Of a stretch of DNA of 64,000 nt, positions 5,420 to 18,611 are shown piece after piece (position 1 is the stretch's first letter; every line of letters begins with the position of its first letter). The stretch covers positions 10,054-74,053 of the forward strand of contig CAZNZL010000002.1 of NCBI GenBank assembly GCA_964577565.1, read 5' to 3'. Both the position numbers and the translations under genes were made by a program. The DNA comes from an uncultured Candidatus Saccharibacteria bacterium. Its GTDB lineage: Bacteria > Patescibacteriota > Saccharimonadia > Saccharimonadales > JAGQNJ01. The notes under the pieces are model-generated. The model saw only the letters and a list, made by a program, of their open reading frames with translations, did no database searches and was not told the DNA's origin.

Positions 5420-5842
5420 TTATTGGTGTCGTTCACTGAGGGGGTGTAGCTCAGTGGTTAGAGCAGTCGGCTCAATTGACAATTTGGCTAAGTCTAGGCT
5501 GGGATTATGCGTCTCGGCATGGCAGTTATGGCATAACAAGACACATTTTGCTATTTCGCTTAAGATAGGTTTTAGTTTGCGGTTTGATAACGCCCTGACA
5601 TCTAACTGAAATTCCTTTCCATTTAAATGGTGGAATGCTAACGCAGAAAGATTCTTGGCATAACCACACTGTGAACATTTTCCGCCAAGCTTATTTACAA
5701 AATAAAGCTTTCGTTCTAACCCTCTTTTTTTCTGGGCAGGATATGATTGATGGGCGGCATTTTTACACTTAACCGAGCAAAATAATACCTGTTTGCCGCT
5801 AAGTACTTTGTGGCAAATGCTGCAGTTAGACCCAGCTTTCAT
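5420..5842 (-). CDS. HNH homing endonuclease (140 aa), antisense to the intron and tRNA
   Basis: CxxC...CxxC zinc-finger pairs, AFHHLNG, and LLCHNCHAETH (HNH motif). About 123 of 140 codons lie inside the intron. The last 17 codons read antisense through the tRNA 5' exon. Confidence 0.8.
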   Translation of the reverse strand: MKAGSNCSICHKVLSGKQVLFCSVKCKNAAHQSYPAQKKRGLERKLYFVNKLGGKCSQCGYAKNLSALAFHHLNGKEFQLDVRALSNRKLKPILSEIAKCVLLCHNCHAETHNPSLDLAKLSIEPTALTTELHPLSERHQ

Positions 5843-6122
5843 AACTGTATATTATATTAGATACGTCAAAATGTTTAGGGCTGCTTACATGGGTAACCTG
5901 TAAGTATATCTTGTCAAATTCGGGGAAGCCTCTGGCATTTCACCGTGGTAATCCCGAGCCAAGTCCGCCCTGTGGCGGAAAGGTGTAGAGACTGTATGGC
6001 AGGCACCCGTCGGCTGACGGGTGAAGAGACAGTCCAGACCATCAAACCCGAAAGGGGCAACGAAAGTTGTAGTGGTACGCATAACCGATTGGTCGCTGGT
6101 TCAATTCCAGCCACCCCCACCA
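5440..6122 (+). tRNA. tRNA with anticodon CAT (probably tRNA-Ile2/lysidine type, possibly elongator Met), interrupted in the anticodon loop by a 607-nt group I intron
   Basis: 5' exon 5440-5472: gggggtg/ta/gctc-agtggtta-gagc/a/gtcgg/ct. 3' exon 6080-6122: CATaa/ccgat/tggtc/gctgg-ttcaatt-ccagc/caccccc/a/cca. Joined, they give a canonical 76-nt cloverleaf. The D-arm, variable loop and T-arm closely match the E. coli ileX sequence as I recall it. Confidence 0.8.
5473..6079 (+). mobile_element. Group I self-splicing intron (IC3-like core) with an antisense homing-endonuclease gene
   Basis: The 3' third (about 5905-6079) contains gtcaaattcgggGAAgcc, cccgagccaagtccgcc and gaaaggtgtagagactgtatggcaggcaccc. 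These align with the Azoarcus tRNA-Ile intron core (GUCAAAUUCGGCGAAACC, GCCGAGCCAAGC, GAAGGUGUAGAGACUAGACGGCACCC), recalled from memory. GAAA-tetraloop hairpins are present (cccgaaaggg, caacgaaagttg). The last 5'-exon base is U and the last intron base is G. Splice sites are predicted only. Confidence 0.8.
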
Positions 6123-6127
6123 ACCAT

Positions 6128-6152
6128 AAGCACTTTGAGAGAAGTGCTTTTT
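6128..6152 (+). terminator. Intrinsic terminator after tRNA(CAU); copy 1 of a 25-nt repeated hairpin
   Basis: aagcactt-tgagag-aagtgctt followed by ttttt. A near-identical copy is at 7007-7031. Confidence 0.7.
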
Positions 6153-6185
6153 GTTATCGTTGTGACATGAATTTAATTCACACTT

Positions 6186-6584
6186 CTAAGATGCTCTAAT
6201 AGGCTGTGCCTGGATAGCCACCAGCTCATTTCCATTATCATAAGCGGTAATGTCGCTGAGTGCTCGGTCAAGATCTGGTTCTGATCCTGCAGACCCCCTC
6301 ACTGCTAAAGCACCAGTTTTGCTAAAAACCACCAATTCCACTGACTTATCTATTTCACCCACAGACATACCAACTCGACCAGCACCACTTACCGCAACTG
6401 CCATTAACAATGCTTCATCATAATCGTCTTCGCTAAGCTCGGCTATTTCGTTTGCGTCCCGACAAGGAGGTCTGACTGCGAGCATACTACATGCTCGCTC
6501 CACACCCCTACCTACCACAGTTGCAACTTCGACTCCATGACCAAAGCTTCGAAATTCACCAATCCTTAGTTCTTCTAGTGACAT
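6186..6584 (-). CDS. Hypothetical protein (132 aa from MSLEEL), cargo of cassette 1
   Basis: SD AAAGGAG lies 6-7 nt upstream of the ATG at 6584. No recognisable motif. Confidence 0.55.
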   Translation of the reverse strand: MSLEELRIGEFRSFGHGVEVATVVGRGVERACSMLAVRPPCRDANEIAELSEDDYDEALLMAVAVSGAGRVGMSVGEIDKSVELVVFSKTGALAVRGSAGSEPDLDRALSDITAYDNGNELVAIQAQPIRAS

Positions 6585-6658
6585 TACGTTCTCCTTTAGA
6601 TACAATTTTCCTCTTAAACAATGTCATTTGCAAGCACAAGAAGCTAGATAGTGTACTC

Positions 6659-6915
6659 GGTTCAAAAGTATTCTCGCTATAGTTAATACAACGAATCACT
6701 AGAGTAAATATGGCTCTGGAAACCTGGAATTAGTCGCCTGATTGAGTTCACTCTGCCAAGCTATATCTGGATTATCAAGAAGCCAATCTATAATGAACTG
6801 TAGTGGTTCAGAAGTTTTCGCTTCTGCTCCACCACGTCAGAATTTATTCCAACCAAATACCAAAAAGGCGCAATCAAGTGACGCCTTTTTTATTTGGTCT
6901 AGTATACTTCTTCCT
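6659..6915. repeat. Direct repeat unit A (~257 bp), paralogous to 8695-8956
   Basis: Hand alignment with unit B. The core (ccaa.ctatatctgg...agccaatctataatgaac.gtagtggttcagaagtttt.gc.tctgctccaccacgtc) is roughly 87% identical, with weaker homology on both flanks. Confidence 0.75.
6699..6836 (-). pseudogene. Copy A of the small conserved ORF (45 codons, RGGAEAKTSEPLQFIIDWLLDNPDIAWQSELNQATNSRFPEPYLL), apparently inactivated
   Basis: Same frame as ORF 8735-8959. TGA at 6837-6839 sits where copy B has CGA, and there is no in-frame ATG/GTG/TTG downstream of it. Confidence 0.5.
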
Positions 6916-7006
6916 TTTCAGATTCAAGATTCCTCTCTTGAATCTGGCGATAGCAGTGTTACGCTTCACCCTACAAAAAATCCTCCTTTTGCGGAGATCC
7001 CAAGAA

Positions 7007-7031
7007 AAGCACTTTGAGAGAGGTGCTTTTT
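7007..7031 (+). repeat. Copy 2 of the terminator hairpin seen at 6128-6152
   Basis: aagcactt-tgagag-aggtgctt-ttt: one substitution relative to copy 1, which keeps a G.U pair. Confidence 0.6.
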
Positions 7032-7084
7032 ATGTACCTCGACTCATATAAGGTTTTCAATAGCCTGGAGTCATTACGAGAGTA

Positions 7085-7113
7085 TTGAATTTATAGTGTT
7101 TATATTGTATACT
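7085..7113 (+). promoter_or_regulatory. Near-consensus sigma70 promoter TTGAAT-17 nt-TATACT, 27 nt upstream of the GC-rich ORF
   Basis: TTGAAT at 7085-7090 and TATACT at 7108-7113, in an AT-rich stretch directly abutting the GC-rich coding region. No SD lies before the ATG at 7140. Confidence 0.6.
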
Positions 7114-7139
7114 ACCGTTGTTCTTTCGAACACGTCAGA

Positions 7140-8501
7140 ATGTCCTTCTACAAATCAGGATGGTCACAGCAAATGTCTATCGAAGCGGATACCAAGGCGG
7201 GCGACAAGACGTCTCCTGCTCCCAAGATGCTGGAGCTGTACGGGAACACTAACCCGGACGGCCACAGCGATGCCGTCATCACCGTGAGGTGGTGTGGCAG
7301 CCCTGCGCTCATCGCGGAACTGAAGAAGGAGCAGGTCACCAAGCCCTACGTTCTTTTGGTCGTGAGGCCGTTCACCTGGGTCCAGGAAAGCGGCAAACGA
7401 TTCAAGCAGTACCATGGGCAGAGCCTGCGACGGTTGGTTCCGCTTACCAGTGAGCTGGCCTACATCAGCCTCTCCCGGCCCGGACTGAACGAGATCATGG
7501 CCACGGTGGTCTATAACAAGCATGGCTACGGTCACTTGCTGGAGCTCAATCCCCTGTTCTTGAGTGGTGGCCCCTTCAGCTACTCCACGCACATCTTCGA
7601 CTGGGGAAACCCCAATGGCAGACCCGAGGATCTGTTGACCAAAGTTCGGCGAACAACTCGCAGCAGCAGCGAGTACACGGCCAGGATCGTGACCGCTGCG
7701 ACGGACACGATCGACGTTGAGGTCCCGAAGGAGCTCTTCGCCAAGGAATACCCCAACTGGGTCAAGGCCTTCGTGGGCAAGTTCTTCACGAAGCCGGCAG
7801 TCGACCAGTGTCACATGCGTCGGCGTTTTCTCTGGAGCATGGCCTTCGCCCTGCCGTATTTCATTTTCGCCTACTTTGCCAGGCTGGTACAGCTGGGAGT
7901 GGGCGGTTGGCTCGGGCTACGCAAGATGCATGTCCGAAGCTTCTTTCACCCACTCAAATACGGGTTCAACGACGTCACTACCGACCAGGACAAGCCCATC
8001 TGGTTCTTCAAGGATGACGGTACACCCAGACCCTTCTGGGCCATGTGCCTGAACCCTGTTACGCCGGTGGTGCTTGGTCTCATCTTGTGGGGGATCGGCA
8101 CGATCCACATGACCCGCAACGGGGAGATCGTCGGCATCATCGGCTGGGACTGGTGGCAGTACTTTGTGCTTGCCGCTGTACTTCACGTAGGCTTGGCCTG
8201 TGTGGCGTTGGTCCTGCTCGGTGTGCTTGTGGTCGTTTCTTTCGTGGTGGGCATGTCGCTCACTGCTGCGCTCAAAAGGCAAGCCTCAAGGCGCCTCGAA
8301 AAGCACCGAGCACTTGCGAAGCAGCAGCGGGAGGAACGCAAGCAAGCTGACCTGAAGGCACTCGAGAGGGAGCTGACGGGCATGGCTTGTCAGCCTACGC
8401 CTTCGATGGTTTCGCTCGACGCCCTGCCGAAGGAGAAGCGCACTCTGCGGCTCTACCTCCAGGATACCAAGCGAAAGGTGTGTAGACCCATCGCCCGGTA
8501 A
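7140..8501 (+). CDS. Hypothetical polytopic membrane protein (453 aa), compositionally foreign
   Basis: Longest ORF in a locally GC-rich block, with strong G/C third-position bias and antisense shadow ORFs. About 210-aa soluble N-terminal domain, roughly 4-5 TM helices (aa ~225-375), a charged coiled coil (KRQASRRLEKHRALAKQQREERKQADLKALERE), and a tail ending KRKVCRPIAR. Confidence 0.8.
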   Translation: MSFYKSGWSQQMSIEADTKAGDKTSPAPKMLELYGNTNPDGHSDAVITVRWCGSPALIAELKKEQVTKPYVLLVVRPFTWVQESGKRFKQYHGQSLRRLVPLTSELAYISLSRPGLNEIMATVVYNKHGYGHLLELNPLFLSGGPFSYSTHIFDWGNPNGRPEDLLTKVRRTTRSSSEYTARIVTAATDTIDVEVPKELFAKEYPNWVKAFVGKFFTKPAVDQCHMRRRFLWSMAFALPYFIFAYFARLVQLGVGGWLGLRKMHVRSFFHPLKYGFNDVTTDQDKPIWFFKDDGTPRPFWAMCLNPVTPVVLGLILWGIGTIHMTRNGEIVGIIGWDWWQYFVLAAVLHVGLACVALVLLGVLVVVSFVVGMSLTAALKRQASRRLEKHRALAKQQREERKQADLKALERELTGMACQPTPSMVSLDALPKEKRTLRLYLQDTKRKVCRPIAR

Positions 8502-8694
8502 GAACCCATCGGCTGAGATAGAAGGAGCATTCGGCTCAACCCTATGATCAAGACATGCAGACATAAAAGATCTGCGTGAGAAGCACCCCACCTCGTGCTC
8601 TCATAGGGAATAGACCTGAAAACACTAAGAGTGTTGGCAAATGTCGACACTTCTCACAATTTGTGAGTTTGTGTTACTAGGGTCTTTTTTAATT

Positions 8695-8956
8695 GGTTCA
8701 AAGTAATTTACGCAATACAATAACATCACATTTATCAGAGTAAATAAGGTTCAGGAAGTTGTTGCCTAGCTGCTTCTTGTAACCTACGTTTCCAAACTAT
8801 ATCTGGGTTTTCCATTAGCCAATCTATAATGAACCGTAGTGGTTCAGAAGTTTTAGCCTCTGCTCCACCACGTCGGACGTGAGTCCGACCAAACCAAAAA
8901 CATGCAAATAAATAGCATGTTTTTTTATTTGATCTTCCAGACATCCTCCTCTTCCG
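8695..8956. repeat. Direct repeat unit B (~262 bp), paralogous to 6659-6915
   Basis: See unit A; same orientation. Confidence 0.75.
8735..8944 (-). CDS. Small conserved protein, copy B (69 aa from the ATG at 8944; the track ORF starts at a TTG at 8959)
   Basis: The C-terminal 45 codons align with copy A and show many synonymous differences. GGAGG abuts the ATG at an atypical spacing, so the start is uncertain. Confidence 0.5.
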   Translation of the reverse strand: MSGRSNKKTCYLFACFWFGRTHVRRGGAEAKTSEPLRFIIDWLMENPDIVWKRRLQEAARQQLPEPYLL

Positions 8957-9031
8957 CAAAAACCATTCCCGCTTTTTGCGGAATTATTCATAAAATTATG
9001 CTTTTAGGTTGGGCGCTTGTGCTTTACGCTG

Positions 9032-9472
9032 CTAGCGTTTACGCAGCTGGAAGGTTAGCATAAAGCGATGGGTTGTGCCGTGAGGATCATCCGCAAGATC
9101 CCGGCTTGTAAAGGCGTAATGCTCGTACAGCTTTCTTGCCCTTCTGCCCTCTACGGGCCGTTCTAGTTCTATTTTCCAACCGTTATTAAGGTCACTGTAT
9201 GCTGATTCGTTATAGTAAAACGGCGCAAGCAAGCCACGCTGTTCTAAAAATAATATGATGGCTGTGTGCCTAATATAACTGGTCTGAGCATAGAGGTTAT
9301 TCTCTATAACCGTCAACGTTTTAGGGGAATAATCTCTTTGTTGAACAGTACTGTCAACATAGTCGCTCAAACTGGCCGCTAATTCATGCGCCAGCTTGTC
9401 TAACGCTGCCTCTTCAGCCTCTGGATTAAACGTCGGCTCTTCGGGCAGTGGATACCGTTCTATTGTTCTCAT
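9032..9472 (-). CDS. Hypothetical protein (146 aa)
   Basis: Long ORF with no recognisable motif. A 9-bp hairpin (8954-8981) lies downstream. Confidence 0.6.
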   Translation of the reverse strand: MRTIERYPLPEEPTFNPEAEEAALDKLAHELAASLSDYVDSTVQQRDYSPKTLTVIENNLYAQTSYIRHTAIILFLEQRGLLAPFYYNESAYSDLNNGWKIELERPVEGRRARKLYEHYAFTSRDLADDPHGTTHRFMLTFQLRKR

Positions 9473-9513
9473 ACCCGCATCTTATCGCGTAACCCGGCAC
9501 GGACGCAAGACAC

Positions 9514-9542
9514 AAAAAAGCGCCCCGCCTTAAACGGGGCGC
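9514..9542 (-). terminator. Intrinsic terminator of the YggT-like gene
   Basis: gcgccccg-ccttaaa-cggggcgc 8-bp GC stem. The A-run at 9514-9519 gives a U-run on the minus strand. Confidence 0.75.
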
Positions 9543-9561
9543 ATATGAAAGAAAATAGAAC

Positions 9562-9942
9562 TTAAACTTCGGGGTGGCGGTTACCAATGGTCACCAGCCG
9601 TGCCAATGCCCATGTTATTAATCCGTAAAACAAGATGGCAATTAAGGTCTCGAACTCAAAGCGGGAAACGCCAAACTGTTCTTGGTAATTAAAGATGCCA
9701 AAGAAGGGGGCAGCAAACGGATAGCTTGCCGAATAAATAAAGTCAACGAAGCCATTGCCCCTATTGGCTCCGAGTAACATAAGAATAAAACGCAAGGCCA
9801 ACAGCGCCATTATGACGCCGCCAATAAATGAAATGATTCGTGCCGCAACGTTGGTACTATGCTCGACTGGTGTCGTTTCGTCATCAATTTCATTAACGGT
9901 GTGTAATCTGCCGGTTCGGGTATCTCGAAAGGTCTGTGCCAT
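9562..9942 (-). CDS. YggT-family-like small membrane protein
   Basis: Two TM helices with RFILMLLGAN...FVDFIYSASYPFAAPFFGIF, which resembles YggT/Ycf19. Assignment is from memory only. Confidence 0.55.
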   Translation of the reverse strand: MAQTFRDTRTGRLHTVNEIDDETTPVEHSTNVAARIISFIGGVIMALLALRFILMLLGANRGNGFVDFIYSASYPFAAPFFGIFNYQEQFGVSRFEFETLIAILFYGLITWALARLVTIGNRHPEV

Positions 9943-10019
9943 AAAAAGCTCCTTGTTTAGGTACCTTTACAGTAGCAAGCAGCTGCAGCTTACGCTGTTA
10001 GAAATTGTACAAGCGTATC

Positions 10020-10589
10020 TTAGGCTTTGTTTTTGGCAGCTTTTAAGGCGTTAGCCCACCACAGTAGGTTATCAATCATGCCATCGATATTACCCATCAC
10101 GAGCGATTCATCGACGGTGCCATCTGGTTTAATAGCATCCCAGTTTTTGATAATGCCAACCGGCGTTTTATTAAGCGGAACCATGCCCATTTTAGACGTA
10201 ATATTACCGAGGTGTTCCAGGGCTCGAGCGGCACCATACGAGCCATACCCTACAAACGCTGCCGGCTTTCGATCCCATTCGTGATAAACCGTGTCGAGCG
10301 CATTTTTGAGCGGCGCTGGTATGCTGTTGTTATACTCAGCCGTTATAAAAATAAAGCCGTCGTAGCTTTTGACTTTTTTGCTCCACTGTTTGGTTGATGC
10401 TTGTTGATATTCTTGGCTCGAGGGTGATTTTGGCTCGCTTAAAAACGGCAAGTTCTCGTCTTTAAGGTCAATCAAGTCAAACTGGACACCCGGCTTATCA
10501 GAAATCTTACCCATAAACCAATCTGCCACCTGCCGACCGACTCTCGTTGGCCGGGTAGTACTTACAATTACGGCAATGTTTACACTCAT
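10020..10589 (-). CDS. NAD(P)H-dependent FMN reductase family oxidoreductase
   Basis: The flavodoxin-like N-terminus MSVNIAVIVSTTRPTRVGRQVADWF and the ITAEYNNSIP motif are typical of the FMN_red family. Confidence 0.8.
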   Translation of the reverse strand: MSVNIAVIVSTTRPTRVGRQVADWFMGKISDKPGVQFDLIDLKDENLPFLSEPKSPSSQEYQQASTKQWSKKVKSYDGFIFITAEYNNSIPAPLKNALDTVYHEWDRKPAAFVGYGSYGAARALEHLGNITSKMGMVPLNKTPVGIIKNWDAIKPDGTVDESLVMGNIDGMIDNLLWWANALKAAKNKA

Positions 10590-10671
10590 ACTGTCTCCTT
10601 ATACTATTTTTATATTACTATACTTAGTATAGTCACTAACTATATTTTGTAAAGTGTATTATAATAAAACT

Positions 10672-11007
10672 ATGCACCGGCAGACTACACGGCATCTTAT
10701 AAAGGATAGGTCTGATTGTATACAAGAAACGCTTCGTATTTTGGGTGACAAATGGACAGCCCTGATTCTGTTTCAGTTACGCAATGCAGACGCCACCTTT
10801 TCGCAACTTGAGGTGTCACTTGAGGGCATTAGCCCCCGTACCCTCAGCCAACGGCTTGACAAGTTAGAGGCTGAAAAAATTATTGTTAAGCGCCGCTACT
10901 GCGAACATCCGCCGCGTTTTCGTTATCACATTACTGACAAAGGCCAAGAATTACAATCGGTTTTACGTAAAATGGCCGACTGGGGCGATAAATATACAAC
11001 CAACTGA
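10672..11007 (+). CDS. HxlR family transcriptional regulator
   Basis: CIQETLRILGDKWTALILFQL...PPRFRYHITDKG winged-helix signature. Divergent from the FMN reductase gene. TATAAT at 10660-10665 lies 6 nt before the ATG, so the mRNA may be leaderless. Confidence 0.85.
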   Translation: MHRQTTRHLIKDRSDCIQETLRILGDKWTALILFQLRNADATFSQLEVSLEGISPRTLSQRLDKLEAEKIIVKRRYCEHPPRFRYHITDKGQELQSVLRKMADWGDKYTTN

Positions 11008-11032: not shown

Positions 11033-13495
11033 TTATAAACGAGGACTCAGCCCCACCGACGTAGCGCCCTTCTTTTCGACAATGACACTGACGCGGTAGC
11101 GCACCAGAGGAATGGTGACCATTTTTAAGTGATGCCAATAGGTGTAGCCGTTAGCAAGAAGCGGATCAGCCTCTAGCAGCGGTTTTTTATGTTTTCGGTA
11201 GTCTGCATAGGTATAAACAGCACCCACTATTAACAATGATCCGATGATACTAAGCAAAGCTGCAATAACGCCGGTATTGGCAAGCATGCCGGAGTTTTCT
11301 GTTGCAAAGCCCACCGGGTCAACAATTATGCCGTTTGGAGTTGCATCGGCATCAAGAGACGAGCCGTCTTGTATGCTATAGGTTAACTTTAAAGCAGTTG
11401 AGGCACCGAGAACCTCTTTGCTTACAGTAGAGCCGTTAATATCCGTATATGTTTTAGTAGTAGCATTGTATTTACGTGGTACGAATTTTTCTGGGTTAGC
11501 ATCAGTTTGATGATGCATGTACATCGTAACGGTAGCGGTATCACCTTGTGAACAGTAAAGCGTGAAGTCGGTGAGTCCGTATGGATAGTCATAGCCAGTA
11601 TCTTTTTGTGGTAGGGTTGTCGCCTTATGGTGCGTTACGGTTCCATTCTCAACACAACCAGCAGTCACTAACGTAGCATAGCTGGCCGTACCGTTTGTAG
11701 TTGTTACCGCAAACGACGTAACCGTGGGTTGAAGTTTGTCGGGCGTGCCGTCGTTATTACCATCACCGTTATTAGGCGCAGCGTCTTCTATTGCATCGGA
11801 TAGGCCATCGGCATCAAAATCATCAGCAGCGCCAACGGAAATATTTCTAGCAAATTCGCTGGTAGCACCAAAGCCAGAACTCGTCGTGTTGTCTATCGCC
11901 GTGGTAGTTGCCGAAAGAAATTTGTTACTAAAGTCACCGCTTACGGTAAGCGTGGCGGTTTTATTGCTACCCGGCGCAACAGCCGTTGCTGCTCCGAGAT
12001 AGGTTTCACCAGGCCCATAGCCAGACATAGAGCGATTATTGCTGGCAAAAAACTCTACACGGTAGGTGTTGCTTGGCGAGTCTGCAGCATCAAGATCATA
12101 CGTAACTGTTAGCTGGTTGCCAACTTGCTGGGCAGTTTTAAGTACCGGGGTGTTAATATAGCCATTGGGACCAGTATCAACGTCACCCGGATCGTTCGGG
12201 GTAGGACCCTTAGAGGTATACTCGTTTGGCCAAAAATCGGGCGGAAAGTCTGTATCCTTACCGTGCACAAGTTCTATGCCAATATCCTTAATAAGTACAC
12301 CGGCAATTTCTTTAGTCTTCATTTTAAATATTGAATTACCCAGGATCGCATTTTTTTGAGGAGTCGCCCCACCACCAATTTGCACAATATCCAAAGAGTT
12401 AACGACAACCCCGCCGGCTACATCGGCAATGACATTAGCCTCATTTTCACCGGTGCCACCAATAAGGTTTTCAGCTGCAAATAATTGCAGAACAACACCC
12501 GGACCCTGGACTATATCGCTGTCATCAATTAACTCACCCTTATAATCAGTTCCAATAAAATTGCCTTGAACCGTATTATGGGTGGTAAATATAACAATAG
12601 CAGCCTCGAGCCCTCCGTTATACACATTAGCCTGGCCAGGCTCTCCGCCGCCTATTGTAATGTTTTGAGCAACCGGGTCATTGCCGAGCAAACTTGAACC
12701 AATCACTGTACCGACAGAGTTTGTCAGCTGCGTTGCGCCGTCTTTACCAATGCCAATATAGTTACCATACATAGTAGATTGGGTGCAGTCCATTGACACT
12801 GCCGAATTATTTTTATTTTGCGAAGCAGTAATAATATTGCGATTTTCAGGGCTACTACCCCCGATAGCCAGGTTTGAACAGCCAGGTGTAGTATTAATGC
12901 CACCCCCATTACCACTGCCCGCCTCTACGCCCGATGGCTTGACGCCAATATAATTACCCTCCAACGTTATATCATTTGAATTTATGACTATTTGGGTGGT
13001 TGTGTAGCTATGGATTGATATACCCCTAACAGTACTGCCGTCAACACCCTGCAAAATTAACCCTGACATAGGCGCCCCGGCATTAGCACCATTAATTTCA
13101 ATAGTGATGGTGCCGTTAAACGGTTCGGGGCTGATGGCGGTATTTGCCTGAGAGCCAGGTTGCGAGTAACCGTCAATAAGCAGGGGCTCGGTTGGCACAG
13201 GCAAAATTCCTGTCGGAGCTATGGTATGAACCCCTGTCCCCGGAATATTAAATTCAATGATATCCACGTCGCCGGAATTGCCATTGCTATTTGCGTCTTC
13301 CATTGCTTTAAACAGCGAGCCTTCGCCCGAATTCGCGGTCGTTGTTACGGTAAATACTTCTGGTGCTGCAGAAGCGTGGCCTCTAAAAAGCAGCAACACT
13401 AGGCAATAAAAAAGTACCATTGCAGCTATAAACAACAACGTAGACGTATCTCGACGTAATGTGTCTAGGTAATTTTTTGCTCCATACATACCCAT
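11033..13495 (-). CDS. Large surface protein paralog 1 (820 aa): signal peptide, beta-helix region, TSP3-like Ca-binding repeats, beta-sandwich region, LANTG sorting signal, TM helix, conserved tail
   Basis: Motifs: APEVFTVTTTANSGEGSL, IDGYSQPGSQANTA, DADGLSDAIEDAAPNNGDGNNDGTPD, then LANTG + hydrophobic segment + YRKHKK + a 48-aa tail. Confidence 0.85.
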   Translation of the reverse strand: MGMYGAKNYLDTLRRDTSTLLFIAAMVLFYCLVLLLFRGHASAAPEVFTVTTTANSGEGSLFKAMEDANSNGNSGDVDIIEFNIPGTGVHTIAPTGILPVPTEPLLIDGYSQPGSQANTAISPEPFNGTITIEINGANAGAPMSGLILQGVDGSTVRGISIHSYTTTQIVINSNDITLEGNYIGVKPSGVEAGSGNGGGINTTPGCSNLAIGGSSPENRNIITASQNKNNSAVSMDCTQSTMYGNYIGIGKDGATQLTNSVGTVIGSSLLGNDPVAQNITIGGGEPGQANVYNGGLEAAIVIFTTHNTVQGNFIGTDYKGELIDDSDIVQGPGVVLQLFAAENLIGGTGENEANVIADVAGGVVVNSLDIVQIGGGATPQKNAILGNSIFKMKTKEIAGVLIKDIGIELVHGKDTDFPPDFWPNEYTSKGPTPNDPGDVDTGPNGYINTPVLKTAQQVGNQLTVTYDLDAADSPSNTYRVEFFASNNRSMSGYGPGETYLGAATAVAPGSNKTATLTVSGDFSNKFLSATTTAIDNTTSSGFGATSEFARNISVGAADDFDADGLSDAIEDAAPNNGDGNNDGTPDKLQPTVTSFAVTTTNGTASYATLVTAGCVENGTVTHHKATTLPQKDTGYDYPYGLTDFTLYCSQGDTATVTMYMHHQTDANPEKFVPRKYNATTKTYTDINGSTVSKEVLGASTALKLTYSIQDGSSLDADATPNGIIVDPVGFATENSGMLANTGVIAALLSIIGSLLIVGAVYTYADYRKHKKPLLEADPLLANGYTYWHHLKMVTIPLVRYRVSVIVEKKGATSVGLSPRL

Positions 13496-13497
13496 GC

Positions 13498-15969
13498 CTA
13501 CCCCAGTTGCGGCGGTGATGCAAGCTTTTCTTTCTTTTCAATACTTATACTAAACCTATACTTGGCCAGCGGAATTGTCACCACCCGTAAATGGTGCCAG
13601 TAAGTGTAGGTACTAGCTAAGAATGGGTCAGCTTCTTGCAAAGGTTTTTTGTGTTTGCGGTAATCAACGTAGGTATAGATAGTGCCGAGTATGATCAGGA
13701 AGCCAGCTGCCACTGCTAACCCTGTTAAGAAGCCGGTATTGGCTAGCACGCCGGTTTGTTCACTAGCCAAACCTACCGGGTCTACAATAATACCGTTTTC
13801 TTCACCGTCGTCGTCTAGGTCGCCACCGTCAGTAAGGCTATAGGTGAGCTTAAGCGCCGTGGAAGCCCCCAAGACTTGACTGGTGAGCGTAGAACCCGGT
13901 ATATCCGAGAACGTATTGGTATGGGCATTAAACTTGCGTGGAATGTAGCGCTGTGGTTCATCTTGGGTATGTACGTACATAGTAACGTTCACGGTATCAC
14001 CCCGTGAGCAGTAAAGGGTGAAGTCGGTTAAACCATAGGGGTACTCGTAACCATTATCTTTAACCTGCAAAGAATTAGCAGCCAGCGATGAAACGGTACC
14101 ATTTTCTGAACAACCTTCAGTCAGGAGGGTTGCGTAGACGGCTGCGCCGTTAACTGTAGCCGTAACGTAGGATGTTACAGTTGGTTGGTTTTTGTCGGGT
14201 ATACCGTCGTTGTTACCATCGCCGTTGTTGGGTGCGGCATCTTCAATAGCGTCTGGTACACCGTCGGCATCAAAGTCGTCGGCTGAACCAACACTGATGT
14301 TTTGGGCAAATTCGCTTGTCGAGCCAAAACCAGAAGGAGTGTCGCCATCAATTGCAGTGGTCGTAGCAGAGAGAGCTTTACCGGTGAAATCACCATTAAC
14401 GGTTAGGGTAGCAGTTTTATTAGTACCAGGCTCAACGCTCGTAGCGGCACCAAGATAGGTCTCGCCCGGACCATAGCCAAAGATAGAGCGTTCATTATTG
14501 GCAAAAAACTCAATTCTATATGTATCGCTAGGCGAATCAGCCGCATCAAGGTCATAGGTGATGGTTAACTGATTGCCAACTTGTTGGGCAGTTTTGAGGA
14601 CGGGGTAATTGATAAAGCCGTTGGGACCATCATCGGTATCGCCGGAGTCATTAGGATTGGGGCCGCGGTTTTCGAAACCGTCTGGCAAGAAATCGCCATT
14701 GCTATCAGTATACATCGCGTGATCTATGCCTAGGTTGGAGTTGCCAATGCCAAGTAAGTTAAATGGTGAGATGCTATGAATAGCATTTCCGAGCACAGCT
14801 ATGTTGGATGATAACGCAGCGATTTCAATTCCAGACCCCTTAACGCCAGCGATGAGGTTACCTTCACCTTCTCCTGTGCCGCCGACTAAACTTGATGGGC
14901 TAATTACAGAGACTATCCCCATGCCGTTAGTTATAGTAGAACGAACTTTGCCAGTATAGTCAGTGCCTATATAATTACCCTGAATGACAGCTGAGTTACC
15001 AGAGATAGATACATTTGCGGTGCCACCAGAAATGAGATTTCTCATACCGGCTTGCGGGCCCCCAACAATCACTTCATTGCTAATAATTTGTATGCCGAAG
15101 CTAAATGGAGCTGTCAAACCATTAGCATCTGCTGCATCTGGTGTTAGATCAGTAACGCCATCTTTGGCGACACCAATATAGTTTCCATAAATAGTAACCC
15201 CGTTGCCTGGCCATATTGCAGCACTTATATGGTTTTGTGAGAAACTGTATACAATATTGCGGTCACTCGGGTCTGTTCCTCCGACAGCACTGTTTTCGCC
15301 AATGGCTAATACCCCGAAGTCATTCCTGCTACTACCCGGTGTTTTGCCATCTGATCGTACTCCTAGGTAGTTTCCGCTTGACTTGGTGTTGCTGCCTACG
15401 AGGACTAGATTGCCGTTAGAGGGATTGCCGTTCGTCAACGTACTGAAGTTATATATTGATAACCCCTTAACTATACTCTCGGAAGCCATTATCGCTATCC
15501 CGCTAGCCTGCTGGGGAGTATCTGGATTGGCAAGCTCAGAGCCGTCAATCTCTATCTTCACTACGCTATTAATTGGTTCGGGACTAGGAGCGGTATTAGC
15601 AGCTGCCCCCGGCTGACTGTAACCGTCTATGGTAACTTTCTCTTCAATAGCTGGAAGGAATGTTTGTGGTTTTATGATATGTGGTCCGTCGCCGGGAATA
15701 TCAAATTCTATGACATCCATGTCAGATCCGTTGCCGTTACTGTTGGCATCGGTAATGGCCTGGCGTAAACTGCCTTCGCCTAAATCATTCGTATTAGTAA
15801 CCGTAAAGGTTTCGGGAGCAGCGTAAAGCGGCTTACTCAAATATAATGCAGTACCCATAGTAAGCAATACGGCTAGAAGCCATAAAAAAACTAGTGAGGA
15901 TGAGTATTTTAGACGTTGTTGTGCTATCATGCAGTCCTGCTTTAAACTTCTTACGTATAAGTATACCAT
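13498..15969 (-). CDS. Large surface protein paralog 2 (823 aa; the true start is probably MIAQQ at about 15930)
   Basis: Same architecture. The 3' ~1.1 kb is about 90-100% identical at the DNA level to paralog 3. Its stop codon lies 2 nt from the start of paralog 1. Confidence 0.85.
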   Translation of the reverse strand: MVYLYVRSLKQDCMIAQQRLKYSSSLVFLWLLAVLLTMGTALYLSKPLYAAPETFTVTNTNDLGEGSLRQAITDANSNGNGSDMDVIEFDIPGDGPHIIKPQTFLPAIEEKVTIDGYSQPGAAANTAPSPEPINSVVKIEIDGSELANPDTPQQASGIAIMASESIVKGLSIYNFSTLTNGNPSNGNLVLVGSNTKSSGNYLGVRSDGKTPGSSRNDFGVLAIGENSAVGGTDPSDRNIVYSFSQNHISAAIWPGNGVTIYGNYIGVAKDGVTDLTPDAADANGLTAPFSFGIQIISNEVIVGGPQAGMRNLISGGTANVSISGNSAVIQGNYIGTDYTGKVRSTITNGMGIVSVISPSSLVGGTGEGEGNLIAGVKGSGIEIAALSSNIAVLGNAIHSISPFNLLGIGNSNLGIDHAMYTDSNGDFLPDGFENRGPNPNDSGDTDDGPNGFINYPVLKTAQQVGNQLTITYDLDAADSPSDTYRIEFFANNERSIFGYGPGETYLGAATSVEPGTNKTATLTVNGDFTGKALSATTTAIDGDTPSGFGSTSEFAQNISVGSADDFDADGVPDAIEDAAPNNGDGNNDGIPDKNQPTVTSYVTATVNGAAVYATLLTEGCSENGTVSSLAANSLQVKDNGYEYPYGLTDFTLYCSRGDTVNVTMYVHTQDEPQRYIPRKFNAHTNTFSDIPGSTLTSQVLGASTALKLTYSLTDGGDLDDDGEENGIIVDPVGLASEQTGVLANTGFLTGLAVAAGFLIILGTIYTYVDYRKHKKPLQEADPFLASTYTYWHHLRVVTIPLAKYRFSISIEKKEKLASPPQLG

Positions 15970-16100
15970 AGCTATAAATCCATTTTATATGTTGACACTA
16001 TCATGGCAGCTGTTTACGTATGTTGTTTAGCGTTTATGATTCAGTTAACCAAAACCCCACTAACCACCACTCTGTCTTTATATTGATTAGTGCCGGTATA

Positions 16101-16167
16101 GCTATAAACAAAAACGTAGATCTATCTAAACCTAATGTAGAAAGACGTTTTTTTCATATCCACCCAT
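16101..16167 (-). pseudogene. Relic of the 5' end of a lost array member
   Basis: 16101-16169 aligns with 13425-13497, the start region of paralog 1 (gctataaaca.aaacgtaga...tttttt...cat.c..cccat.cctacccc). It reads MGGYEKNVFLH-stop versus MGMYGAKNYLD. Confidence 0.55.
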
Positions 16168-16169
16168 AC

Positions 16170-18611
16170 CTACCCCAGTTGCGGCGGTGATGCAAGCTTT
16201 TCTTTCTTTTCTATGCTTATACTAAACCGGTACTTTGCCAACGGAACTGTCACCACCCGTAAATGGTGCCAGTAAGTGTAGTTACTAGCTAAGAATGGGT
16301 CAGCTTCTTGTAAGGGTTTTTTGTGTTTGCGGTAATCGGTATAGGTATATATGACGCCAACTAAAAGCAGAAAACCAACCGCAACTGCTAAACCGGTCAT
16401 GAAACCCGTGTTAGCGAGCACCCCAGAGCTTTCGCTGGCCAAGCCAACGGGGTCAACAATCACGCCATTTTCGGTAGCGTCATCATCAAGGTCACCTCCA
16501 TCAGTAACGCTATAGGTTAGCTTCAACGCGGTTGAAGCACCAAGCACTTGGCTCGTTAGATTTGAGCCAGGAATGTCGGTAAAGGTATTGGTACCAAGGT
16601 TAAACTTACGAGGAATAAAGCGCCGTGGTTCATCTTGGGTATGTACGTACATAGTAACGTTCACGGTATCACCCCGTGAGCAGTAAAGGGTGAAGTCGGT
16701 TAAACCATAGGGGTACTCGTAGCCGTTATCTTTAACTTGCAATGAATTAGCAGCCAGCGACGAAACAGTGCCGTTTTCAGAACAGCCCTCAGTCAAGAAC
16801 GTAGCATAGACGGCCGAACCATTAACCGCGGCTGTAACGTAAGATGTTACGGTTGGTTGGACTTTGTCTGGGATGCCGTCATTGTTGCCGTCGCCATTGT
16901 TAGGTGCGGCATCCTCAACTTCATCAGGCACGCCGTCAGCGTCAAAGTCCTCAACAGAACCAATACTGATATTCTGAGCAAATTCGCTGGTTGAGCCAAA
17001 ACCGCTGTCTGTTGTGTTGTCAATTGCGGTAGTGGTGGCAGACAGGGCTTTATTTGAAAGGTCGCTGCCCACCGTTAGCGTAACGGTCTTATCGGTACCG
17101 GGCGCAACGCTATCAGCTGCACCCAGATATATTTCACCAGGACCATTACCAAAAATTGTCCTACTGTTACTTGCAAAGAACTCTACCCGATACGTATCAC
17201 TCGGCGAATCTGCGGCATCAAGATCATACGTTATGGTTAGCTGGTTGCCAACTTGCTGGGCGGTTTTAAGAACGGGTGTGTTAATAAAGCCATTAGGGCC
17301 AGTGTCAGTATCGCCTTCGTCGTTTTGGGTAGGACCAGCCGACTCAATAGTATTGGGCACGCTATCTGGCGGGTTGTCACTATCATCGGTTTTTAATAAA
17401 TCGATTCCAAGATTGACCTCACCCAAATCGAGATAGCCATACACGGCAACATCTCTAATAGAGTTTCTAAGCATTGTATTTTTTGTAATTGGCGCGGTAA
17501 TGTCTAGGGCGGATAGACTATTTTCTATAACACTAATACCAAAGCCCCCGATTCCAGCAATGGTGTTACCCTCGTTGTCGCTTGTTCCACCAATAAGGTT
17601 ATTTGAAGCTCCCAGCAACATGGTTACACCTCCGCCTTTTGAAAAATTGTCGTGAGCGTTACCTTGGTAATCGGATGCAATGAAATTACCCTGAACTATA
17701 TTATTGTTTTCAAAAATTACAATATTTACAGCTTTAGCATTTGCAATAACATTGGCTTCTCCGGTATCAGGACCACCAATGACATTATTGGTACTTCGGC
17801 TCTGGCCAGGGCTTCCAACAGAAATAGTAGTATCATAATTACCTATCTTTGTAACACCATCTGGTGCAACACCTATAAAGTTACCCTTCACGAAACTATC
17901 AGTACAAGCAAGCATAACAGCCGAACGCCCCGTTGTTTGTTCGCCGGCAATTACGTTTCTGTCCCGAGGATCGGTGCCTCCAATTTGTGCACCCGAAGCA
18001 GTATTTTGGCAGTTTATACCACTGTCAGTACCCTCTAGAGGCTGAAATGTACCTTGAGCATCAATCTGCAAGTAATTACCACTTATCTTTACATCATTGG
18101 CCCCTATAAAAATCTGAGCAAATTTTGCCCCCCTAATAGATAGACCCGAGATTACGCTTTCATCAGCAGAAATCTCCAGTGCGCTTTCTTCAGATGTGGT
18201 CGCGACAATTTCAATACGTATTGTTCCGTTTAAGGGGCTAGGCGCAATTGCAGTATTGGCAGCGGCACCTGTCTGAGAATAGCCATCTATAGTAACCTTT
18301 TCTGTAATGGCGGGGAGCCCTGACTCGAGCGATATGGTGTGTACGCCGTCGCCAGGAATATCAAATTCTATGACATCCATGTCATCCGGGTTATTATTAT
18401 CGTTCGCGGCAAGAATTGCAGCCCGCAATGATCCATCACCTGAGTCATTCGTGTTAGTAACCGTAAAGGTTTCGGGAGCAGCTAAAGCGGTATCGCGGGT
18501 TAGTAGCAAAAAACTAAAAGTTATTAAAAGTACCACATAAAACCACGTCAAAATAGATGGCGTAAGGTGAGCTGCTTGTGATCTTTTTTTCATATCCCTA
18601 AATTTAAGCAT
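16170..18611 (-). CDS. Large surface protein paralog 3 (813 aa)
   Basis: Same architecture: GDGSLRAAILAANDN, IDGYSQTGAAANTA, TSP3-like repeat, LANTG + TM + YRKHKK + tail. Confidence 0.85.
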   Translation of the reverse strand: MLKFRDMKKRSQAAHLTPSILTWFYVVLLITFSFLLLTRDTALAAPETFTVTNTNDSGDGSLRAAILAANDNNNPDDMDVIEFDIPGDGVHTISLESGLPAITEKVTIDGYSQTGAAANTAIAPSPLNGTIRIEIVATTSEESALEISADESVISGLSIRGAKFAQIFIGANDVKISGNYLQIDAQGTFQPLEGTDSGINCQNTASGAQIGGTDPRDRNVIAGEQTTGRSAVMLACTDSFVKGNFIGVAPDGVTKIGNYDTTISVGSPGQSRSTNNVIGGPDTGEANVIANAKAVNIVIFENNNIVQGNFIASDYQGNAHDNFSKGGGVTMLLGASNNLIGGTSDNEGNTIAGIGGFGISVIENSLSALDITAPITKNTMLRNSIRDVAVYGYLDLGEVNLGIDLLKTDDSDNPPDSVPNTIESAGPTQNDEGDTDTGPNGFINTPVLKTAQQVGNQLTITYDLDAADSPSDTYRVEFFASNSRTIFGNGPGEIYLGAADSVAPGTDKTVTLTVGSDLSNKALSATTTAIDNTTDSGFGSTSEFAQNISIGSVEDFDADGVPDEVEDAAPNNGDGNNDGIPDKVQPTVTSYVTAAVNGSAVYATFLTEGCSENGTVSSLAANSLQVKDNGYEYPYGLTDFTLYCSRGDTVNVTMYVHTQDEPRRFIPRKFNLGTNTFTDIPGSNLTSQVLGASTALKLTYSVTDGGDLDDDATENGVIVDPVGLASESSGVLANTGFMTGLAVAVGFLLLVGVIYTYTDYRKHKKPLQEADPFLASNYTYWHHLRVVTVPLAKYRFSISIEKKEKLASPPQLG

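Follow-up and report, generated by a model that had tools for sequence, protein, structure and literature searches.

Why should two unrelated genes, placed on opposite strands directly behind a single tRNA gene, be enclosed by the same pair of boundaries? The question arises in a Saccharibacteria (TM7) bacterium, in the window analysed here (the whole 64-kb stretch of DNA, 44.7% GC), where the initial annotation had described two tandem cassettes, each with a hairpin at its left end and a repeated unit at its right. All of the features listed in that annotation were recovered where it had placed them. Further, two independent Logan contigs (assemblies of public reads) from SRR7082976 are 100% identical to window positions 6067-8974 and 8952-10623, and the tandem arrangement is thus not an assembly artefact. 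We consider the region to be, probably, the end of a hypervariable island that lies nearest the tRNA, with two decayed integrative elements stacked 3' of tRNA(CAU). Its features are as follows, with LSR standing for large serine recombinase and int(N) and int(C) for the two fragments of a split LSR gene.

5440 to 6122, plus strand: tRNA(CAU), read directly from the sequence
6128 to 6152, plus strand: T1, a predicted terminator hairpin 5 nt past the tRNA end, with a 9-bp stem, a GAGA loop and a U-run
6186 to 6584, minus strand: cargo 1, a 132-aa protein, function not assigned, with its own RBS (AGGAG)
6659 to 6834, minus strand: unit A, an int(C) relic (the 3' end of an LSR gene)
6835 to 7000, plus strand: tail A, a chromosomal-looking flank (B') of the attachment site, which begins cgtcagaatt and ends ..aatcctccttttgcgga
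7007 to 7031, plus strand: T2, the second copy of the predicted terminator hairpin (-13.6 kcal/mol), upstream of the cargo 2 promoter
7102 to 8694, plus strand: the cargo 2 module (promoter, gene and 3' spacer)
8695 to 8870, minus strand: unit B, a second int(C) relic
8871 to 8982, plus strand: tail B, homologous to tail A, with hairpins hp1 (8896-8926) and hp2 (8952-8983)
9032 to 9472, minus strand: a 146-aa gene, function not assigned, the first past the array and given for context only

The repeated unit is indeed present twice (roughly 290-340 bp each) around unrelated genes, and its copies align in a single register of +2036. Their core stretch (6756-6857 against 8792-8893) is 85% identical and includes an exact 37-mer, of which none is expected by chance. 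Each copy is a composite, in which a 176-bp block that recurs across species is followed by a lineage-specific tail with hairpins. Specifically, the block of unit A consists of 44 codons (6833 down to 6702), a stop (6701-6699) and a conserved 3'UTR (6698-6659), with the attachment core CCACCA at 6829-6834; it lacks a start codon and is closely preceded by a TGA. In unit B, the codons run from 8869 down to 8738, with the stop at 8737-8735 and the core at 8865-8870. Tail A holds a bidirectional terminator hairpin, hp1 (6862-6891), and a further hairpin, hp2 (6918-6947), and its start resembles the flank of an old tRNA-end scar in L004 and that of the L003 tRNA; an anchor-gene fragment proposed within it was not supported. 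Past CCACCA, the tails show homology only between A and B and to no other genome.

Six copies of the block, A and B together with those of the related loci L002-L005, allowed its character to be judged. Conservation stops precisely at CCACCA in all six, variable columns fall 19/13/32 at codon positions 1/2/3, and pairwise pN/pS ranges from 0.23 to 0.48. The position of the stop codon is kept, but not its identity (TAG versus TGA). Judged from these substitutions, the units are minus-strand coding sequence. Over the 176 bp, unit A is 68% identical to unit B, compared with 78% to the L004 unit and 72% to each of those in L002 and L003; since unit A is closer to the units of other species than to its neighbour, the pair is not a recent duplication.

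The proposal of a tRNA-adjacent hot spot with variable cargo was borne out among relatives. L002-L005, four further Saccharibacteria loci, share tRNA(CAU) and the unit, and the genes between the two are wholly unrelated (genes of 185, 193 and 184 aa, a four-gene block and a 6.2-kb element). Wherever the orientation was compared (the window, L002-L005, L008, L011 and L013), the units lie 3' of the target tRNA, with their coding strand directed toward it. An LSR occupies the corresponding place in L004 and L008. The 6.2-kb island of L004, which adjoins the same tRNA(CAU), encodes a 521-aa LSR with Resolvase and Recombinase domains, the ORF of which continues into the tRNA (..ELSSGGGGKN, then stop), and the string tctggtggg is common, in the same frame, to the end of this LSR and to the unit at the opposite end of the island.

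In the Saccharimonadales there is a family of small elements (~5-9 kb) driven by an LSR. The layout shown by its members places attP inside the 3' end of the LSR ORF, at codons S-G-G (tct ggt gg, which contains CCACCA on the opposite strand). On the excised circle, this ORF is predicted to span ~560 aa and to end in a conserved tail of 44-45 aa. Integration at the CCACCA end of a tRNA splits the ORF at that point, leaving int(N), of ~520 aa, beside the tRNA, where it stops a few codons into the reverse-read tRNA, and sending the int(C) tail fragment and its 3'UTR to the far end of the element, where they abut the chromosomal flank as attR.

Both forms of the ORF, unsplit and split, are represented in the databases. 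A search with the reconstituted protein revealed a large family (653 matches), in which P0055 (563 aa) is unsplit, ends in ..GGTEDKTLEPLNSIAEWLMDNPGIAW.. and matches an HMM of the unit peptide (E = 4e-13); the tails of P0061 and P0062 (559 aa) are related. The two ends of the P0055 contig overlap by 30 nt, as do those of the P0061 contig, and both contigs are on that ground taken to be circular. An nhmmer search with the unit alignment matched the 3' ends of LSR genes on contigs L006 (9e-16) and L007 (4e-4), the circularity of which was judged solely from k-1 terminal overlaps. As for the integrated state, ~110 of 118 family members end 4-20 residues past ..E[LIM]SSG, in residues read from the reverse strand of a tRNA end (GGGGWT, GADERT and GRGDRT among them), and four integrated elements (L004, L008, L011 and L013) retain int(N) at the tRNA. 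In L008 (tRNA-Met) and in L011 and L013 (tRNA-Leu), int(C) is found on the strand of int(N), 4.9-7.1 kb upstream of the int(N) stop, and its frame continues that of int(N) through the core that they share; over the four integrated elements together, the distance likewise falls within 4.9-7.1 kb. All 11 tails compared share a mini-domain, in that they are 44-45 aa long and conserve G1, E9, W17, W26 and Y42. Small ORFs of 47-77 aa in the databases have unrelated N-termini and become homologous exactly at GG/GA. The half-site on the unit side, which should be the P arm of the LSR attP, is invariant at 25 of the 30 positions next to the core; an attempt to map the crossover by dyad symmetry yielded no more than a weak peak, within the core, and was set aside.

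The enzyme of the relatives fits the domain make-up of an LSR (N-terminal Resolvase catalytic domain, Recombinase domain, zinc ribbon and coiled coil). It matches Pfam PF00239 and PF07508 and, by sequence in the PDB, the catalytic domain of the TP901-1 integrase. An AF2 model of P0055 places a beta region resembling a zinc ribbon at 304-346 and long helices at 365-450; its tail is of low confidence (pLDDT ~50-58), and we make no docking claim. The unit was not found in viral contigs, and in IMG/VR even the nearest relatives of the LSR reach only 28% identity. A metagenome scan with the unit pattern returned one locus, L005. One reading of the unit, as the C-terminus of a surface protein (a 762-aa ORF in L002), was discarded, as that ORF merely runs through an attP-like 19-mer into the relic.

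Returning to the window, each unit is an int(C) plus attR relic, behind which lies a terminator-bearing flank of chromosomal type. The connection of the window itself to an LSR element is one of homology and position, rather than of an intact element. The initial annotation had noted no recombinase in the window, and this holds as far as it was probed, by tblastn with the LSR, which returned no int(N) or LSR remnant, and by Pfam scans of ~40 ORFs. Because the int(N) body is missing at the tRNA, the window copies are relics rather than complete elements; of the four relatives to which the unit led, three likewise lack int(N). With both int(N) bodies lost, the islets would now be fixed. Units A and B probably derive from two different element lineages, gained in separate acquisitions, and the cargo genes may be leftovers of those elements or products of later recombination. 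However, two LSR integrations in simple succession at one attB would not be expected to leave the flank in duplicate. Since both units carry a chromosome-type tail, we propose that either attB was regenerated between integrations or a variant allele of the locus was imported, in the latter case by homologous plus illegitimate recombination. The model of two relics also leaves unexplained why T1 and T2 are 24/25 identical, compared with 68% for the units.

The hairpin at the left boundaries does occur twice, with no further copy in the 64-kb window (none expected), but T2 is not T1 with a compensated change, as had been stated: the A to G substitution at 7022 turns a U-A pair into a U-G wobble. 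T1 has a folding energy of -10.4 kcal/mol (z = -4.65). T1, T2 and hp1 each combine a G+C-containing stem-loop with a U-run, as in intrinsic (Rho-independent) terminators, and from sequence and predicted fold the T hairpins are such terminators. T1 may end the tRNA transcript and T2 may insulate the promoter of cargo 2. T showed no similarity to a P' arm or to recombinase coding sequence, and both readings were rejected. A supposed pseudo-tRNA 3' exon upstream of T2 (a 13/16 match) was equalled in 12 of 300 shuffles and is probably due to chance; that stretch is homologous to the flank of L017 instead.

Cargo 1 has a promoter-like site just beyond the edge of unit A, has no match in Pfam, NCBIfam or PHROG and is missing from all other loci compared. 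It is not the orphan that it had been called, in that 24 distant relatives of ~130 aa place it in a small family of 25 representatives. Cargo 2 (7140-8501) encodes a membrane protein of 453 aa (or 442 aa) and is GC-rich, as described before (58.5% against 44.7% for the window), with a promoter-like site, TTGAAT-17-TATACT, at 7085-7113 and a terminator-like hairpin (8653-8667) in the 3' spacer. Only 10 homologues were found, and in other genomes none adjoins a tRNA or a unit; the gene may have been acquired horizontally. In L017, from another strain, the homologue is 70% identical and the whole module 75% identical at the nucleotide level, with a tail-like left flank, a different right-hand context and no unit B, and a different hairpin occupies the position of T2.

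Other histories could be imagined for these boundaries. An in-place segmental duplication of the run from T through gene and unit to tail, followed by divergence and the replacement of one gene, would sit well with the single register of the copies, with tails that are homologous only to one another, and with the near-identity of T1 and T2. We nevertheless think it unlikely, as the units are only 68% identical and unit A is nearer those of three other species (72-78%), as their differences bear a signature of protein-level selection that a dead duplicate would not gather, and as L017 has the cargo 2 module and tail-like left flank without unit B. The initial annotation had named a single segmental duplication as the outcome that would overturn its own proposal; the tails and T1/T2 do agree with such an event, but the six-sequence comparison suggests that A and B are not sisters. 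More doubtful still is that the unit is an independent, duplicated small gene, either for a 45-70-aa protein or for a small RNA ending in CCACCA, which we regard as highly improbable. Start codons are missing from unit A and from the L005 unit, the L003 unit is interrupted by a stop, and full-length LSRs carry the peptide in frame as their C-terminus. Substitutions are coding-like, gene callers have called 13 such small ORFs, and start codons do lie upstream in unit B and in the L004 unit, but the N-terminal extensions are unrelated and that of unit B reads through a terminator hairpin. A small RNA was rejected, with no match in Rfam and with variation that is 3-periodic rather than pair-covarying.

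A live cassette system, in which T, the unit or both would be the recombination sites of an enzyme whose gene lies elsewhere in the genome, with insertion and excision as in integrons or cis-mobilisable elements, also strikes us as improbable, if less so than a small gene. Its appeal lies in the 25-nt palindrome (an 8-bp inverted repeat with a 6-nt spacer) at the left end of both cassettes, in the presumed P half-site within the unit, and in the abundance of LSR elements of the split family in related bacteria. Yet no recombinase was found in the 64 kb, there is no third T past unit B, and attL is not intact, as the tRNA-side junction (accat and T1, to the right of the core) is unlike the P' arm of intact elements. 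T itself did not stand as a cassette boundary site: it has the U-run and fold of a terminator, it occurs in this genome only, among the loci fetched by that stage, and L017 has another hairpin at the homologous position. An integron-like array bounded by recombination sites was likewise not supported, the right boundary being a recombinase-gene relic and an attR junction. The locus is thus best regarded, with good though not complete confidence, as a stack of decayed insertions with different cargo rather than as an active cassette system.

The split family has a close parallel among archaeal viruses and plasmids (SSV1, pTN3, pT26-2), in the SSV-type (“suicidal”) tyrosine integrases. In these, attP lies inside the integrase ORF, and integration at a tRNA gene leaves int(N) at one end of the element and int(C) at the other, with orphan fragments accumulating in genomes (PMC7253208, PMC8371274). 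The attP within the ORF, the tRNA target, the split and the orphan fragments are common to both. However, a large serine recombinase here takes the place of the tyrosine recombinase, in a CPR bacterium rather than an archaeon; the family thus works like the SSV-type system without being a member of it. Further, the cut takes off only the 44-45-aa C-terminal tail, and the ~520-aa body, which keeps its Resolvase and Recombinase Pfam domains, need not be inactivated by the split. Integration-dependent immunity of mycobacteriophages, reportedly described by Broussard et al. 2013, is comparable in that integration alters the C-terminus of a product and writes the state of the element into a protein. 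In BPs, Brujita and others, attP lies in the 3' end of a gene (PMC4557955). There, the split gene is a repressor and the integrase is of the tyrosine type, whereas here the split gene is the recombinase itself.

The stacking has counterparts as well. Accretion of ICEs and CIMEs in streptococci yields tRNA-linked islands in tandem arrays. Prochlorococcus tycheposons are likewise tRNA-linked genomic islands in tandem arrays (bioRxiv 10.1101/2020.12.28.424599). As in both, variable cargo is stacked 3' of a tRNA, degraded elements lack a recombinase, and repeats derived from attachment sites mark the boundaries. In contrast to both, the boundary in the window is a recombinase coding relic with only 6 nt of tRNA identity and no partial tRNA copy, and the recombinase of the family is a serine recombinase. 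With integron cassettes, the locus shares promoter-poor single-gene units with recurrent boundaries beside a fixed site, but the window has no IntI, attI or attC, no recombinase appears among the ~40 ORFs scanned, a terminator and a gene relic form the boundaries, and cargo genes are found in both orientations.

LSRs are prized tools for genome engineering, and their directionality normally needs a separate factor. It is possible, and we put this forward tentatively, that Saccharibacteria carry a widespread LSR family with its att site in a flexible linker of its own ORF, such that integration at a tRNA trades a conserved C-terminal helical module of 44-45 aa for a few tRNA-encoded residues. 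The two forms would report the free and the integrated state, and this may be enough, with no separate directionality factor, to decide which way recombination runs; orphan tails such as those in the window would be a reservoir from which newly arriving elements could assemble hybrid recombinases. We found no description in the literature searched of such self-splitting for serine recombinases or for bacteria. If true, an integration that edits the C-terminus of its own enzyme would be a new regulatory layout for LSRs. Among bacteria and serine recombinases, the family is a counterpart of the “suicidal” integrases of SSV type in archaea. For annotation, the result accounts for a class of start-less “hypothetical small proteins” and for repeated boundaries beside tRNA genes in CPR genomes, and it points to tRNA(CAU) as a hot spot of insertion at which cargo differs between species.

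The tRNA itself, whose 3' end (CCACCA, 6117-6122) is the attachment-site core, is interrupted between positions 33 and 34 by a group I intron (5473-6079; Rfam RF00028 match at 5857-6060). An ORF for an HNH homing endonuclease (5420-5842; PHROG HNH family, E = 9e-21) lies on the strand opposite the tRNA, and the orthologues of the tRNA in L003, L005 and L008 are intron-free by ARAGORN.

The array beside tRNA(CAU) reads as the initial annotation described it, with two boundary repeats around different cargo, and is laid out as follows:

5440-6122, tRNA(CAU), with a group I intron at 5473-6079 between positions 33 and 34
5420-5842, minus strand, HNH homing-endonuclease ORF opposite tRNA(CAU)
6128-6152, left-boundary hairpin T1
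6186-6584, minus strand, cargo 1 (132 aa)
6659-6834, right-boundary repeat, unit A
6835-7000, tail A, the segment following unit A
7007-7031, left-boundary hairpin T2
7140-8501, plus strand, cargo 2, a membrane-protein gene (453 aa)
8695-8870, right-boundary repeat, unit B
8871-8982, tail B, the segment following unit B

Aligned in register at +2036, the units have a core that is 85% identical and an exact 37-mer in common (chance expectation 0), and the minus strand of both specifies a near-identical 44-residue peptide (GGAEAKTSEPL[QR]FIIDWL..NPDI.W....PEPYLL), with many synonymous differences and a stop codon equal in position but not in identity (TAG vs TGA). In unit A the reading frame lacks a start codon and is immediately preceded by a TGA. 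When one genome per species was scanned with a peptide pattern, three Saccharibacteria MAGs (L002-L004) proved to carry the unit; a DNA-pattern scan of metagenomes added locus L005. The six copies share a conserved 176-nt block from GGTTCAA to CCACCA, past which conservation ends exactly. Their variable columns (19/13/32 at codon positions 1/2/3) and pN/pS of 0.23-0.48 indicate that this block evolved as coding sequence; it is not, however, a free-standing gene, as the start codon is missing from the L005 unit as well as from unit A, and an internal stop interrupts the L003 unit.

What the unit belongs to is evident from L004, where a 6.2-kb island delimited by tRNA-end copies follows the same tRNA(CAU). 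Its tRNA-proximal gene encodes a 521-aa large serine recombinase (LSR) with Resolvase and Recombinase domains, and the ORF continues into the opposite-strand tRNA (..ATELSSGGGGKN*), where its codons tct-ggt-ggg are the identical, same-frame opening of the unit peptide at the island's far end. Three further integrated elements have the same layout, one at tRNA-Met (L008) and two at tRNA-Leu(TAG) (L011 and L013), with the tail fragment lying 4.9-7.1 kb upstream of the stop of the recombinase body, int(N); the two fragments share a strand, and the reading frame is kept across their common core. The unit is therefore int(C), the end of an LSR gene that encodes the tail; the gene carries attP inside its own ORF, and integration leaves int(C) at the distal element end as attR. 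The non-coding part of the unit right after the int(C) stop (6659-6698 and 8695-8734; GGTTCAA..CGCTATAGTTAA) is conserved across species, and partially so in two circular elements, L006 and L007.

Searching a protein database with the joined L004 recombinase halves (body plus tail) returned 653 relatives, most of them ~520 aa long and covering 92% of the query. Unsplit forms were among them: P0055 (563 aa) reads on as ..GGTEDKTLEPLNSIAEWLMDNPGIAW.. and is matched by the unit-peptide HMM (E = 4e-13), and its tail has relatives in P0061 and P0062 (559 aa). The contigs of P0055 and P0061 (5,204 and 9,352 bp) each have a 30-nt end overlap, equal to k-1 for these assemblies, from which we infer that they are circles. 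Only six of the 118 members of the family have long tails; about 110 terminate 4-20 residues past a conserved ..EPFASLVKxxE[LIM]SSG, in reverse-read tRNA ends (GGGGWT, GGGGWNRTNYQAVMSRLL, GADERT, GRGDRT). Among integrated recombinases (P0001-P0120), the last residues spell the target tRNA: GGGGW(T/S) in L004 and L008, adjoining tRNA(CAU), and, adjoining tRNA-Leu(TAG), GA[DR]ERT (L011) and GGDERT (L013); for GRGDRT or GRGGRI, the target is probably the initiator tRNA. These differing endings mean that one recombinase family has several tRNA targets. All eleven tails are 44-45 aa long with conserved G1, E9, W17, W26, and Y42; small ORFs annotated in other assemblies are unrelated at the N-terminus, with homology beginning exactly at GG/GA; and in the AF2 model of P0055 the core falls within a linker of low confidence (518-531), after which come short helices. 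Together, these features support the view that the tail is a genuine protein module.

In the window itself, we found no LSR remnant, and no recombinase among ~40 ORFs scanned, as initially noted. Each unit is followed by a tail containing a bidirectional terminator and a second hairpin (hp2), homologous only between A and B; since the tail start (CCACCAcgtcagaatt) resembles the flanks of the oldest L004 tRNA-end scar and of the L003 tRNA, the tails look like B', the attachment site's chromosomal side. Unit A is closer to the units of L004, L002, and L003 (78, 72, and 72% identical) than to unit B (68%), which argues against a recent in-place duplication and for two element lineages. The tandem of attR and B' might have arisen if attB was regenerated between two integrations, or if a variant whole-locus allele was imported by homologous plus illegitimate recombination. 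Window positions 6067-8974 and 8952-10623 are each matched at 100% identity by one of two Logan-collection contigs from sample SRR7082976, and the tandem layout has thus been assembled independently. The contigs break at 6067 (the tRNA 3' exon start) and at 8952-8974 (inside hp2 of tail B), which could reflect strain-level variation at exactly those junctions.

We conclude that the array comprises two fixed relic islets. It is not an integron, and the cassette system proposed initially is not supported; the units are int(C) relics, and T1 and T2 are intrinsic terminators. The proposal of a tRNA-adjacent variable-cargo hot spot is supported, with unit-adjoining cargo genes mutually unrelated in all loci. 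T1 and T2, the only copies of this hairpin in the window (expected 0), differ by a single base (24/25 identical), as had been noted, but the change makes a U-G wobble and is not compensated. A 14-mer (ACCATAAGCACTTT) at 6123-6136, forming the left arm of T1, recurs exactly at 1215-1228, in the flank of a second tRNA-Met(CAT) (957-1031). A 187-bp scar follows that tRNA and ends in an exact 21-nt copy of its 3' end (1198-1218); a further partial copy (GAGGTCGCAGG) lies at 1101.

The layout works like that of archaeal SSV-type "suicidal" integrases (PMC7253208, PMC8371274) and of integration-dependent immunity in mycobacteriophages (PMC4557955), although here the enzyme is a serine recombinase, the host is a CPR bacterium, and the C-terminal tail alone is removed. 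The stacked recombinase-less islets resemble tRNA island arrays, of which tycheposons are an example (10.1101/2020.12.28.424599). In the literature searched, we found no account of an LSR split in this way in Saccharibacteria, which is absence of evidence only. The window itself contains relics; the interest lies in the LSR element family that they reveal.

The intron and HNH ORF arrangement also occurs in L002 and L004, and the orthologous tRNA is intron-less in L003, L005, and L008. A 2026 survey described tRNA-Asn introns with HNH genes in Patescibacteria (PMC13011429), in which we found no mention of the tRNA(CAU) case. L002 (~10795-10920) and L004 (~9826-9930) share a ~100-nt element (ending ..CCCCCACCA) in which the tRNA 3' half is present as two decayed copies; it looks like the scarring left when earlier elements inserted at this same tRNA. 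In L002, a 762-aa fn3/GLUG-like surface-protein ORF (7847-10135, plus strand) contains an attP-like 19-mer (CCACCAATTTGAGAGACCT; repeats at 9987-10005 and 10948-10966) that the tRNA end carries too, and continues beyond it, without a change of frame, into the int(C) tail, so that a recombinase relic supplies the last 44 residues of the ORF.

Cargo 2 has 58.5% GC (window, 44.7%), and its module (7102-8694) is 75% identical to L017, where a tail-like segment flanks it on the left, another hairpin occupies the T2 position, and a peptidase gene stands where unit B would be. In genomes of 53-60% GC, consistent with a higher-GC origin of cargo 2, its homologues have as neighbours proteins of 860-876 aa that carry MVP-shoulder, Vault_3, and Band_7 domains, which could be a functional pairing:

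L015, 4349-6931, vault-domain neighbour region
L016, 5146-7776, vault-domain neighbour region

Three tandem paralogous ORFs of 813-823 aa (11033-18611, minus strand), with no Pfam match, lie within the ~12.5-kb stretch from the tRNA to the conserved Dus/ABC-transporter genes, a stretch that is far shorter in L002 and L008. In L005 (148-3358 and 11242-11360), the island separating tRNA and unit carries CYTH-domain, 481-aa, AAA-kinase-like, and GreA-C-like genes that may form a defence-type module. The unit there abuts the DivIC/FtsB gene, whose place in the window is across the tRNA, and L005 also contains a LOOT RNA.
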